From Spizellomyces punctatus DAOM BR117 (Eukaryota): a stretch of DNA of 64,000 bases. Both the position numbers and the translations under genes were made by a program. Every line of letters starts with the position of its first letter. Positions within the stretch are counted from its first letter, which is position 1. Below, piece after piece: positions 42,146 to 47,073 of the stretch. The notes below the pieces were generated by a model. The model did no database searches. It was not told the origin of the DNA and saw only the letters and a list, made by a program, of their open reading frames with translations. The DNA is taken from the NCBI GenBank assembly GCA_000182565.2, contig KQ257459.1. One strand, given 5' to 3'.

Positions 42146-42844
42146 TTTTGTATATGGCCTTTTAATACCACCATATTCTGCTGGAGATCCTTTTTTTGGC
42201 TATCATATTTAAAGTTTCCTATTCCCTAATGGCAAGCAACCCCATTGTCACGTGGATTTGGCCAAGGCTCCATACCTACATTTTATGGTTTAAGCAGAAA
42301 GAAAACCATGTTAGTTACTATTTCGACTGATTGCAGCGGGAACGATGTTCAAAAGAAGGACCGCTGTGAAATCAAAAATAACAGCGAAAGGAAAGAATTG
42401 CCTGCAAGCGAACGTGAGTTTACGGGATATATCTGCACCAAACTTGCGTCAGTGGTACAATTTTGCCTGTATTTGTCCGAATTGGAAAATCAAAAATCTC
42501 TCAACGGACAGGGCACTTTCCTCCAGCCGAACGGCAAAAGAGCTATTTAACAATCTCTGTTTTCGACAGCTCGCCGTCTTGGCATCAGCATCTCATCTGC
42601 GAAGAGAGGACATTAGTGTTTTGTAGTGGTGTGGTATTCCCCCCAACACAGTAACTTTTTTAGAAACGGGTGACTGTTGAATTTCATACAAGGTTGCGAC
42701 GAGTCGGTTTCCAAAGCCGTTCCTTTTTTTTTTTGGTAGGTTACTACTCTGGTTTTATCTCTGTGGTTTCTGTCTAGAAAGGAGAGTGTCCCTCATCTCT
42801 ATCTTCCTGTTTTTTGTTGGACAAATTCCCATCTCAGTTACCCA

Positions 42845-44504
42845 ATGACCATGACTGAGGGCGGCGTGCATAATTTCGAGGTCACGACCTATAATAGGCC
42901 AACATACTGTGATGCTTGTGACAAGTTCTTGTGGGGGCTTGTAAAGCAAGGTGCTCAGTGTAAAAGTAGGTATCCTAAAGTATTTAGGCATGACGCTACC
43001 GTTAAGCGCTGAAGCGGTGACTTATTCCCAATTCTCATTGCAGACTGTGGATTCAACGTCCACAAAAAGTGCCAGCACTTGGTGTCAACTGCTTGTAGTG
43101 GCGACTTCGCCCCTGGTAGATACCGGGAGCGGTCAAGCTCAGATCTGGTTCCGAACGGCACGTACATAGATGCCGGTGATTCGGAGCGTACTCTCGTCAA
43201 GCGGAGACAAAGTGACGTGGCTGGGAAAGCGATCACGGCTCCTCGCAAACCCCCAATGAAGCGGTCGGTCACCGCCGGCCCTACGGAGAAAGAAATGAGC
43301 ATTGTTCAGGAATTGATCACAAATACTGCAATGAACTCTGCGGCAATGGAGAAAGCGGCAAAGGATGCTGCTCCACCACTGAACCTCCTGACTACTACAC
43401 CCAAGAACTTTACTCGGTTTGTCGCACGCCTTGGTCCTGCTGTCAACTTCCAAGATGACATTGCAGAAGTGCTGACCTGGCAGAATCCGCCCAAGACTAT
43501 TATCGTGATGGTCACGTACATTTTTCTTTGTGAGTTCATCATCGGCATCCGCAAAAGTCATTCATATTTTGACTCACTCTTACTATTCAGGTATATACCC
43601 AACCCTCCTCATCGTTGCACCTCAAATGCTTCTCATCTACATCATCATGCGCAACTACTACAAGAAGACAAAGAAGGAAGTTGTTGGCCGCAAGACGAGC
43701 GGGAACGTCCAGTACCTCAAAAATATGCAATTCATCCAGAACTCAATGGGGATGTTCTGCGATGTTTACGAAGATGTTAAAAAGAACTCGAAGGCTCTTG
43801 ACTGGTCCAACGAAGAAGAAACGATCCGCCTTCTAAAGCTTGCCGTTGGTTCCATGTTCGGTGTCATCTTTGTCATCCGTGTCATCCCCTTCAACTACCT
43901 CATGCTCCTCGGTGGTGTAAGCGTGTTCCTACAGAACACTGCTCTCTTTCGCGCAGCCTCCACCACCCTCCCCCCGGTGTTGATAAAGAAACTTCAGAAC
44001 CAGGTCGACAACATCCGCGAGGCCATCCGGGAAGCTCGTCGAACTGGAGATGGCAGTGTTGTCACAGTTACTCTGTTTGAAAATCAGAGGTGGTGGGCTG
44101 GTGAGTAAATCTGTCCGCGTCCTGTAGATGGCAGTATTTCGATATTGAATCTTTTGTGTAATGCAGGTCTTGGATGGATTCCTCATCTTCTTCGTTCTGA
44201 ACGTGGCCCCTGGAGTGACGAAACTGGTCAGATCACACGAGCTCCCAAGGAAGTATTCGAGCTGCCAGAAGACGGTGGTGTTTGGCAATGGATGGACGAA
44301 GACTGGCGTCTGGATGTTGGCTGGGCGGATGTGGATGAACAAGGATGGCAGTATACGGACCATGTCTGGGCGAATGCCAAGAGTAAAGCTGCAATGTCGT
44401 CCCTAACTCGTCGTCGAATGTGGGTGCGTAAAATGAGACTCATCAAGCCCCAAGTACCAGCAATTGCTGGAAGTGTCCCAGTTAAGGCGATCAAAGCGCA
44501 ATAA
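42845..44504 (+). CDS. Pex23/Pex30-family peroxin (reticulon-like + DysF) with N-terminal C1 domain
   Basis: C1: HNFEVTTYNRPTYCDACDKFLWGLVKQGAQCK|DCGFNVHKKC; NFTRFVARLGP..EVLTWQNP; DysF: LFENQRWWAGLGWIP..WQWMDEDWRLD..GWQY..LTRRRMWVR. Confidence 0.85.
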
Positions 44505-45100
44505 GCCCGCACGCACCATGTGGCAAGGGTGAGTGGATTCTGGTGATGCCCCATATATGGGAGAGATTGTGGAGTGTTAGAGCTTCTGCGCGTAGACAGG
44601 CCTCATATACGAGCAACTGGCGATAGACAACCTAGACCTCATTAGATCAACTGCCAGAGGGCGTGGGAGAGTTTTTCTTGTACAAATGTTTCGGACGTTT
44701 ATATCTTAGTGCAGGGTCATCATATTTGGTAGTGGTTAAGGCGATGTTGTAGGTTTTAATATTATCGGCGCTCTTTACATTATACTTCGTAGGCGCAGAT
44801 GGTAGGCGCTCTAATAGATATGCCCTTGAATTATACAACTCCTTCCAACTTCATTTGAAATAGCCAGTCCATATTATCCTCCATATTTCTATGCAGACAG
44901 GTTCAGGCTCTTGGATCTGTCTAGGACAATTGTGGTCGACACCAAACATGGCGAAGAACAGATTCAATTTTCACACCAGTTTGAGACATGAATTTATTCT
45001 TTCCCACATACAACATAATTTCTAAACTAGAGACTGTGCACACCACCGCCTTCTTCTCTACAGGCTGCGAAGGTCGCGGTCGAATCTATCGAAAAGAAAG

Positions 45101-45660
45101 CTAAAAAATAGTGAGGGTCAGTAAAACACGCAAACATTTGAAATACGAAAACGCATCCCAAATGGAACCGTCTGCGACCACGTTCTAAGTTGCCTCCCGT
45201 CCCAGCCAGGTCCCAGCAGGTCCCCCCTACCACAGGAACCCCGTAGATACCTGGGCGTCACTATTGGGACAACCCAAACACAGTACACTCAGAGCAGTAC
45301 CCATCTACCCATTCATCGACGATCGAGCACTAGACTCCGATGTTGCAAGGCCCCAGCAGGTTCCACTACCACAAGAACTACCACACACAGGAACCCCGAA
45401 GATACCAGGAACACCTATTGACCTAGTCTCAAATCGCTCGGTGGGTTACTCTTGGCAGGTAGGACAAACCGTAAGATCCCGTAGGCTGCTAGACTCCCGC
45501 CGTAGCACCCAAGTGCCCAGTCAATACTGACAATACTGATATTGGGCCTAGCCGTCGTCCGGGTCGCAGCGAATGCCCCTCCTGTGAAGGAAGCCTTGCA
45601 ATGTCCTCCCGCCCTCACCTTAGTGTAGTATGAGTCGCGTCTTGAAGGATCGGTTGGTGA
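45101..45660 (-). ncRNA. Putative structured non-coding RNA of unknown family (~510-nt folded core 45111-45618)
   Basis: TATAAAAA about 30 nt upstream; no credible ORF; 5' and 3' ends pair over ~23 bp; nested helices rich in G-U pairs on this strand; three hairpins with a repeated module; followed by T6-AG. Confidence 0.6.
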
Positions 45661-45687
45661 GAAGGGGGGCAAGCGCGAGAGGGCCCC

Positions 45688-45695
45688 TTTTTATA
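45688..45695 (-). promoter_or_regulatory. TATA box of the putative ncRNA locus
   Basis: TATAAAAA followed ~30 nt later by a pyrimidine-rich CTTCTCA initiator-like site. Confidence 0.55.
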
Positions 45696-45884
45696 GCGCG
45701 TAATTTGCTACGCCATGCGATTGGAATTATTTGTTGTCATGGTTCCCAAAAAGTTGATATGCCCAAATTTAAATATGTCATGTGATATGTTGAATTGACT
45801 TACCTCAGCGGCCCCACATATTTGACTCACTCGGGATGAGGTCACCCTAACCTTCACCATTTTGCAGCGGAAAGTGCAACCAAG

Positions 45885-47073
45885 ATGTCTTTCATTAGCG
45901 GGCAAACTCAGTGGTTTCAAAAGGTAAGTAAGAATGCCGGAGTACGGACGAGGTGTCGACGCTCTCTGTTCCGGCTTGTCTTCACCAAGGCCGATTTGAC
46001 GGACAGGTGTTGGCACTATAGGTGATCACCCTCCCAGCAAAACCTCGAGGCTGTCATTTAGTTACGTGAGTTCGTGTTACTCTTATATTCTTGCGGAATC
46101 AGGCTAATACTAGCGCTCAGGCAAGATGTGTTGAGGTACACAGAAGTGCAACTTAAGTTCTGGGTGTTATGACTAACGACGCGTGCGACATGGCGGAAAC
46201 GGATATCAGACAGGTGTGTCAGTTGGGGAATACTAAGCGTGCCGTAGTAGCATATTTAATGTATGGTACTTTCCTTAGATTCCAGAACTCAAATCCTTCA
46301 AAGTCGGTATGGCGAACTTCTTCCGTGAGTTGAACCCTAGTGACGATCTAGTTGTCGAACTTCTTATCGATTCATCGGTATTACTAGTGCAACACACTTC
46401 CGCAGCTTTAACTATCAACGAGAATTATGGTACGTTCTATCAGGAAGCGTGGGGTTATGGTTGCTGACAGGGATACTTTTTGTGCAAAAAGATTCAGATG
46501 TAAGGTAAAGGACGTTGTGACCACGCTGTGCGGTCGGTCTTTGATGAAGATGTTGTATTAGGGTTGATATGGAAATGATGCTGAACCGATTGGCACCGGA
46601 GGAGGCACCCTACTGCCATACGGTATGTAGTACGTTCTGTACCCCTTTTTGATACGCGTGATCTAATGTGATATCTATTAGATGGAAGGTGACATAGGCT
46701 GTTATATATTGATTGGTCTTTCCGCTATATTCACACGACCACTCCGGAAACGTGTTGACAGGTTCTGATGACATGGTAAGATTATTCAAACTGGCAATCA
46801 TGGAAGCAGTATCTGCTGGCACAGACATTTGCTAATGCCCAACTCAAAAGCCGGGCCATGTGAAGTCCTCCTTGCTGGGAGTATCTTTGAACATTCCAGT
46901 CAGCAAAGGATCGCTTGCTCTTGGGTAAGCAACATACCCATGTCTTTACTGACGGGAAGAAATTGACCGCGTCGTTTATCAGAACTTGGCAAGGGATCTG
47001 GTTTTGTGAAGCGAGGAATCACGGAGGAGCAAGACAATGTGTGGTGACTATTCAAGGCGTAGCAGATAAATAG
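45885..47073 (+). CDS. yjbQ: YjbQ/UPF0047 family protein, 149 aa in 12 exons
   Basis: Exons 45885-45923, 46022-46065, 46121-46135, 46210-46213, 46279-46324, 46388-46429, 46492-46504, 46562-46622, 46682-46688, 46762-46775, 46851-46924, 46983-47073 sum to 450 nt and give WFQKVITLPAKPRGCHLVT..QHTSAALTINENYDSDVRVD..HTMEGSDDMPGHVKSSL..LGTWQGIWFCE. Confidence 0.9.

Follow-up and report, generated by a model that had tools for sequence, protein, structure and literature searches.

The element on the minus strand at 45618–45101 of the window, by which we mean the whole 64-kb stretch of DNA that was analysed, is a canonical GT-AG spliceosomal intron, and of this identification we are close to certain. 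The fuller reading that we favour, with a probability of roughly 0.85, places this intron inside a small, single-intron, non-coding gene transcribed by RNA polymerase II (Pol II), and takes the helix predicted between the two ends of the intron to be a precursor-level structure that would gate splicing. An earlier note, made from the letters of the DNA, had proposed a new class of RNA at this place, so that the locus is mainly a correction: the supposed new RNA class is an intron.

The element is removed from a minus-sense RNA by splicing

RNA reads were mapped over 44000–46700. Run X10 consists of raw reads from a 3'-biased library whose species label is that of the best-matching DNA runs, and run X1 is a random-primed root-metagenome library kept as contigs. 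The RNA-seq reads with the same species label contain a splice joint from 45100 to 45619, carried by 102 reads with 15 start places, at which exactly 45101–45618 (518 nt) is skipped. The skipped segment ends in CT..AC on the plus strand, i.e. GT..AG on the minus strand, and all 102 junction reads lie in the minus-sense orientation (first mate on the minus strand). The neighbouring Pex24p-like gene is on the plus strand, and the reads on its 3' UTR are oriented the opposite way (first mate on the plus strand); the spliced RNA is therefore minus-sense.

On the minus strand the letters at the upstream junction are ACUAAG followed by GUGAGGGCGGG (45619/45618), and those at the downstream junction are UUUUACUGACCCUCACUAUUUUUUAG followed by CUUUC (45101/45100). 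The 5' splice site, GUGAGG, occupies 45618–45613 and the branch-site motif, UACUGAC, 45123–45117, with the presumed branch A, as judged from the motif, at 45118. The 3' end of the intron has the form UACUGAC-N8-UUUUUUAG, comprising a U-rich tract and a terminal UAG that ends at 45101, and 17 nt separate A45118 from the terminal G45101. Exact removal with joining of the exons, GU and AG ends, a branch motif of the CURAY type and a pyrimidine tract are together the marks of a U2-type GT-AG intron. Splice signals of a similar kind are present in the introns of the neighbouring yjbQ-like gene, which have GTGAGT and GTACGT as 5' sites and CTGAC. As the core opens with GUGAGG and closes with UACUGAC, a U-tract and UAG, an intron was suggested from the letters alone.

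The earlier note had taken the same letters for an autonomous, structured RNA of ~510 nt, of the Pol III or Sm class and under its own TATA box. The upstream TATA box, the 3' U-run and the lack of a match to a known family would all suit such an RNA; against it, its borders are the GT..AG junction used by the 102 reads, and the U-run is followed by another 120 nt of transcript, with poly(A) added downstream of an AAUAAA. Splicing at GT..AG from a polyadenylated Pol II transcript refutes a Pol III or Sm-type RNA, and we give the autonomous RNA practically no credence. The letters AUUUUUUAG, which had been seen to follow the core immediately, are the pyrimidine tract and 3' splice site, neither an Sm site nor a Pol III terminator.

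The statement that the element resembles no known family is confirmed. At the gathering score Rfam gave 0 matches in the whole 64-kb window, a search that covers RNase P/MRP, SRP, the snRNAs, U3, telomerase RNA, ribozymes and group I/II introns, and at E ≤ 10 the sole match within 44600–46100 was to TCL6_3 (E 7.2), on the other strand and meaningless. ARAGORN found no tRNA, and a bacterial promoter/terminator scan, which is unsuited to a eukaryote, gave nothing.

The host gene is small, non-coding and polyadenylated

The TATA box TATAAAAA is present on the minus strand at 45695–45688, as had been claimed, and precedes the RNA 5' ends seen in the reads by about 44–51 nt and the border of exon 1 and the intron by ~70 nt. 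The 5' ends are marked by 17 reads with a loose end at 45641 and 46 with one at 45644; upstream of about 45644 the read depth is close to zero, and the mean depth of 9.84 in the bin 45638–45728 fits coverage of its first few bases only. What had been described as a leader of ~40 nt is in fact a first exon of 23–26 nt (45619–45644, minus strand), which is non-coding and bounded by the splice joint at 45619, its 5' end being approximate. Reads at the RNA 5' end (45641–45644) also carry ~9 extra letters that are G-rich on the plus strand, agree among the reads at 0.44–0.52 and are absent from the upstream genome; these could be adapter or template-switch letters, a deletion allele or a tiny upstream exon.

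Exon 2, delimited by read depth and sequence, is ~120 nt long (44981–45100, minus strand), is likewise non-coding and folds at the level of its shuffles (z +0.35). An AAUAAA polyadenylation signal at 44993–44998 precedes by 10–13 nt the site of cleavage and poly(A) addition (44980–44982), which is ambiguous within a run of three A, and in 30 reads a loose run of T16 stands before 44980 on the plus strand, corresponding to poly(A) on the minus strand. The spliced RNA thus begins near 45644, ends near 44981 and measures ~146 nt (about 25 + 120) plus poly(A), while the intron makes up ~78% of the primary transcript. There is no usable reading frame in the spliced RNA, exon 1 having no ATG and the single ATG of exon 2 (45016–45014) opening a frame of 12 codons with no stop before the poly(A) tail; an upstream ORF of 105 aa had no Pfam match. 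The host RNA is therefore non-coding and polyadenylated, and a TATA-driven, AAUAAA-dependent, polyadenylated transcript is the product of Pol II. It reaches a depth of 101 in the exon 2 bin 45001–45091 and of 170 at 45091, above the 21–45 seen on the 3' UTR of its Pex24p-like neighbour in this 3'-biased library. The possibility that the intron belongs to the 5' UTR of a downstream minus-strand gene was considered and ruled out, as poly(A) addition at 44981 ends the RNA, and the Pex24p-like gene, on the other strand, takes up the 2 kb that follow.

The gene sits between this Pex24p/Pex30-like gene, with which it is convergent, and the yjbQ-like gene, from which it diverges. The "Pex30-like" neighbour of the earlier note is borne out by ORFs on the plus strand at 43596–44501, which match Pfam Pex24p (E 1e-6 and 4e-12). 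Directly upstream of these frames, on the same strand, is a C1 domain (phorbol-ester/diacylglycerol-binding; Pfam C1_1, E 2e-10; 42740–43009); the two may form a fusion protein or belong to separate genes. An Atlas search with the Pex24p-like exon returned weak eukaryotic/fungal leads, the best with a score of 0.82, and a scan of metagenome contigs with the 165-aa exon found one locus, of 26% identity and with 235 nt of downstream flank, which is too remote and too short to serve for synteny.

The other neighbour we take to be yjbQ-like on the strength of the earlier reader's reading and of its HTSAALTINEN motif; one exon-plus-intron stretch of it, used as query, had no Pfam match. A root-metagenome RNA contig supports introns of 63, 62 and 57 nt in this gene, and the 518-nt intron is 8–9 times the length of these neighbours, the sample being the three RNA-supported introns. 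The gene, which is on the plus strand, also includes a micro-exon of 13 nt, ATTCAGATGTAAG, at 46492–46504, flanked by introns of 62 nt (46430–46491) and 57 nt (46505–46561), and the root-metagenome contig joins 46429 to the letters of the micro-exon and these to 46562 onward; a placement of the joint as 11 letters between 46429 and 46560 is equivalent. Just upstream of the 5' part of the yjbQ-like gene, or overlapping it, minus-sense reads of run X10 cover 46093–46274 at a depth of 4–6.6 and could represent an antisense transcript or the 3' end of another minus-strand unit.

The folding excess of the intron lies in a helix between its ends

The first and last 24 nt of the core, which the earlier note had paired with each other, are predicted to form a terminal helix of ~20 bp at pair probabilities of 0.92–1.0. 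Its 5' arm (45595–45618, minus strand) holds the 5' splice site and its 3' arm (45111–45134, minus strand) the branch-site motif; the core reads GUGAGGGCGGGAGGACAUUGCAAG from 45618 and, at its other end, UUUGCGUGUUUUACUGACCCUCAC up to 45111, followed by UAUUUUUUAG to 45101. A duplex of the first and last 30 nt of the intron has an energy of −23.1 kcal/mol (z −4.4), equalled by 1 of 1000 dinucleotide shuffles, and with 60 nt from each end the energy is −41.7 kcal/mol, equalled by 0 of 1000. As a native control, which keeps the real sequence statistics of the genome, 414 GT..AG segments of 518 nt were taken from elsewhere in the window on both strands; two of these matched the end pairing of the intron at N = 30, placing it in the top 0.5%, and three did so at N = 60. 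Further in, CUGCGACC at 45569–45562 and GGUCGCAG at 45179–45172 stand on the minus strand where they had been placed (predicted probability about 0.66), and with their neighbours form an inner helix in which 45562–45572 is predicted to pair with 45168–45179 at a probability of about 0.64–0.66.

Over its whole length the intron folds at −202.4 kcal/mol on the minus strand (z −2.34; 3 of 100 shuffles as good), whereas the plus strand gives −135.6 kcal/mol with a z of only −0.49, so that the folding excess is specific to the strand, as had been argued. The interior (nt 25–484), once the terminal arms are removed, has a z of −1.09, with 15 of 100 shuffles as good. Nearly all of the folding excess therefore sits in the terminal helix, and we infer that the interior multibranch and the low energy mostly reflect a G+U-rich composition. 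The comparison with shuffles thus divides the earlier picture: the whole intron is modestly better than chance, but the "highly structured" interior with its "multibranch of long hairpins" is not, and with interior structure at chance level the proposal of a new fungal ncRNA class is unsupported. Nor is the partner drawn for the 5' arm the sole option, as the G-rich first 45 nt of the intron pair about equally well with nt 377–421 (−37.4 kcal/mol).

Within the predicted helix the 5' splice site, G1–G7, pairs with C502–C508, and the nucleotide just before these, the branch-site A (nt 501, 45118), is predicted to be bulged between G45612-C45117 (G7-C502) and C45611-G45119 (C8-G500). A bulged branch A in a helix with the 5' splice site led us to consider self-splicing of the group II domain VI type. 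This was rejected: the bulged A lies 7 bp from the phosphate of the 5' splice site, no group II model matches, and in the second allele described below G>C at 45119 turns the bulge into a mismatch.

The intron contains an imperfect direct duplication of ~50–65 nt, identified from repeat families and self-BLAST. The two copies (45345–45409 and 45205–45254, minus strand), each of which holds a hairpin of the GGUUCC/GGAACC type, share 85–92% identity over blocks of 16–24 nt (families D1–D3) at a spacing of 139–155, and no further copies are present in the 64-kb window. Self-BLAST also finds no second copy of the locus as a whole in the window, and the contig depth in the DNA run, a crude test of copy number, is 2.6–2.8 across the locus and about 2 in the flanks. 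A multi-copy transposon or LTR is ruled out as far as the window and this flank-like depth show.

These hairpins bear on whether the intron hosts a processed small RNA, i.e. a box C/D or H/ACA snoRNA or a microRNA-like RNA cut from a hairpin. In fungi, UHG-like genes that host snoRNAs have this layout of non-coding exons and one long intron, and one may speculate that Dicer could act on the two repeated GGUUCC/GGAACC hairpins. Set against this, the features of a box C/D snoRNA (C box RUGAUGA, D box CUGA and terminal stem) are not found in the intron, which has 0 matches to RUGAUGA even with 1 mismatch and only two CUGA, one of them inside the branch site. Those of an H/ACA snoRNA are missing too: only 3 ACA occur, none of them in the standard layout of hairpin, H box (ANANNA), hairpin and an ACA 3 nt from the 3' end, and upstream of the only interior one (nt 276) lies a fold that is branched or has two hairpins instead of one. 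Within 44600–46100 Rfam reports no snoRNA family at E ≤ 10, and we consider a hosted small RNA very improbable.

Unspliced RNA and a second allele or paralogue

In run X10 the 3' part of the intron is covered at a depth of 39–52 over 45108–45147, which falls to 25, 10 and 4 in the bins toward the 5' end, and the 5' end itself at a depth of 16–19 (45600–45605). From these depths, the 102 spliced reads and the depth of 170 in exon 2, we estimate that roughly 15–30% of the polyadenylated molecules are unspliced.

The estimate is complicated by sequence variation among the intronic reads. Variants occur at 45119 (C>G, 21/49), 45122 (T>G, 21/48) and 45144 (T>C, 16/39); ~40% of the intronic reads carry linked differences (45108–45307 and 45600–45605), and some diverge with indels, having loose ends at 45148 and 45180 while a block matching 45187–45199 (+) is kept. 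Linked differences together with indels indicate that a second allele or paralogue is expressed in the X10 strain. In the terminal helix the changes fall at 45600 and 45605 in the 5' arm and at 45119 and 45122 in the 3' arm. Of the exon 2 reads only 16 of 170 show a variant, at 45091, and the second copy is perhaps spliced less well or less expressed.

In the second allele the predicted pairing is mostly kept: G-U becomes A-U at 45605, A-U becomes G-U at 45144 and C-G becomes U-G at 45283, while the change at 45119 is a shift of register in which G9-C500 replaces C8-G500. Of six changes that fall on predicted pairs, two disrupt the pairing. The variants would be compatible with selection on the helix but are far too few to show it.

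These results can be set against an alternative, namely that the transcript is an ordinary, possibly functionless ncRNA from a TATA-containing intergenic promoter, in which the length of the intron and the pairing of its ends are incidental, the complementarity being for example a leftover of the internal duplication or of G+U-rich composition. The chance-level interior, a whole-intron z of only −2.34, the alternative partners of the 5' arm, the lack of a family match and the internal duplication itself all speak for this reading. It accounts less well for an RNA expressed more highly than the 3' UTR of the adjacent gene within one library, for a TATA box, splice signals and AAUAAA that are all well formed, for an end pairing in the top 0.5% of native controls, and for second-allele variants that mostly keep the pairing, even though 2 of 6 break a pair. 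We regard this reading as a serious but unlikely explanation, and retain the intron with a gating terminal helix as the preferred one.

In the random-primed run X1 the sole piece in 44000–46290 is a 365-nt contig that lies within the intron (45230–45594, depth 3.1, 1 mismatch). The same run has a yjbQ contig that is correctly spliced (depth 3.48), which shows that RNA of the organism is present in the root-metagenome library, and by these contig depths, which are low, RNA containing the intron is about as abundant in total RNA as the mRNA of a neighbour. Run X1 carries 0.13 of the sampled words of 44300–46300. The shares of runs X2 and X3 (0.07) and of X11 and X12 (0.00) carry no weight, and mapping of X11 on 44000–46700 found nothing. 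As RNA ends are not visible in the X1 contigs, whose depth is low, and gaps between them are uninformative, an excised intron and a precursor are indistinguishable in this run. A contig of the intron interior without host exons is thus a weak hint of a stable excised RNA. The suggestion of a "stable intron" in the earlier note is accordingly correct as to the intron, by virtue of the 102 junction reads, while its stability is hinted at only by this one low-depth contig of 365 nt.

A possible gate on splicing

We propose that the ~20-bp helix formed by the first and last 24 nt would act as a precursor-level structure that draws together both reactive ends of an intron of unusual length. As it contains the binding sites of both U1 and U2, it should compete with both, and it may thus be a gate that slows splicing after the 3' arm has been transcribed rather than a plain helper. 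The sizeable unspliced fraction fits a gating helix. That fraction may, however, equate to ordinary inefficient splicing of an ncRNA or to the 3' bias of the library, the near-equal pairing of the first 45 nt with nt 377–421 also speaks against gating, and the X1 contig of the intron interior without host exon fits the intron as a product at least as well. A role of the helix in splicing is what we infer from its predicted position, and we put at about even the chances that the helix matters for splicing or for the fate of the intron.

In a lariat both strands of the outer 7 bp of the helix would leave the branch in the same direction, so that by geometric reasoning these pairs should not form there and the helix would be that of the precursor or else of a linear intron after debranching. 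The second option leads to another reading of the locus, in which the tiny non-coding exons serve as host only and the intron is the product: excised and debranched, it would persist in a stable linear form (a "stable intronic sequence RNA"), and its host would resemble a snoRNA host gene without the snoRNA. With its 5' end paired from nt 1 and a 3' tail of 10 nt, such a molecule would be expected to hinder exonucleases.

Several observations speak for this reading. The exons, ~146 nt in all, are non-coding and unstructured (exon 2 z +0.35), the intron takes up ~78% of the primary transcript and is 8–9 times as long as its three RNA-supported neighbours, the sole X1 piece in 44000–46290 is the 365-nt intron contig, and a helix whose terminal 7 bp should not form in the lariat fits the linear form. 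The distance of 17 nt from branch to 3' splice site is also in keeping with it, as short distances mark the stable linear introns of Saccharomyces cerevisiae (10.1101/426049), although short distances are normal for the neighbouring introns here too and so do not discriminate. The X1 evidence is moreover one contig of depth 3 from one run, and an unspliced precursor gives the same contig; a spliced RNA of 146 nt may be lost by size selection of the library, and the interior of the intron folds at chance level. We therefore think it rather unlikely that the intron is the product. Somewhat less probable still is a stronger version, that of an "intron-delivery" gene, in which a strongly expressed, TATA-driven host with a meaningless exon of ~146 nt would exist to release the 518-nt intron as its real product, which after debranching would be a closed, exonuclease-resistant rod.

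Relation to known introns

The closest known counterparts of a gating terminal helix are the zipper stems of long S. cerevisiae introns, described for RPS17B, RPL7A/B, RPL28 and others (PMC12350175) and, for RPL7B, in a preprint (10.1101/2025.03.14.643126). As in those introns (PMC12350175), an intron of ~400–500 nt occurs among short ones and has complementary segments near its 5' end and its branch site, and the helix, like the yeast stems, would shorten the effective distance between the reactive sites. The helix of the present intron differs in beginning at intron nt 1 and containing the branch-site motif, which would make it more inhibitory or gating, and its host is non-coding rather than a ribosomal-protein gene. 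By the positional definition of PMC12350175, which includes a total linker of 42–85 nt between the stem and both signals, a range derived for the yeast A complex, none of the three stacked helices of the intron qualifies as a zipper stem. Helix 1–10/498–508 contains both splice signals, and helix 13–24/485–495 comes within 5 nt of nt 501, the presumed branch A. Helix 47–59/437–451 has both single distances within bounds, but its linkers of ~95 nt (46 + 49) lie marginally over the limit.

If the intron were instead the product, the comparison would be with the stable linear introns of S. cerevisiae, (10.1101/426049; 10.64898/2026.01.21.700889). According to 10.1101/426049, a distance of 25 nt from branch to 3' splice site goes with stability and one of 45 nt does not; the stable introns share "no common predicted structures", owe their protection to the spliceosome and accumulate only under stress. 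The intron described here has a short distance (17 nt) as they do, and a total-RNA library hints at its presence as RNA; unlike theirs, its protection would come from the terminal helix.

With regard to host genes, introns contain 45 of the 55 C/D snoRNAs of Neurospora crassa, and some of these snoRNAs have non-coding hosts (PMC2780460). The present gene resembles fungal UHG/GAS5-like snoRNA hosts in producing a spliced, polyadenylated Pol II RNA of little or no coding potential with an intron much longer than its exons (PMC2780460). It differs from such hosts in that the intron has neither snoRNA boxes nor an Rfam snoRNA match and is a single intron rather than one of a cluster.

Significance

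The locus serves as a reminder that an element of the form GUGAGG...UACUGAC...U-tract...AG should be read as splice signals first. As a gene it is of modest interest, being a highly expressed non-coding gene that consists mostly of one intron, 8–9 times the local intron length. Were the intron itself the product, it would be a stable intron protected by structure and not by the spliceosome, in an early-diverging fungus. If the terminal helix gates splicing or protects the intron, the gene would offer a compact natural test case for intron structure outside Saccharomyces.
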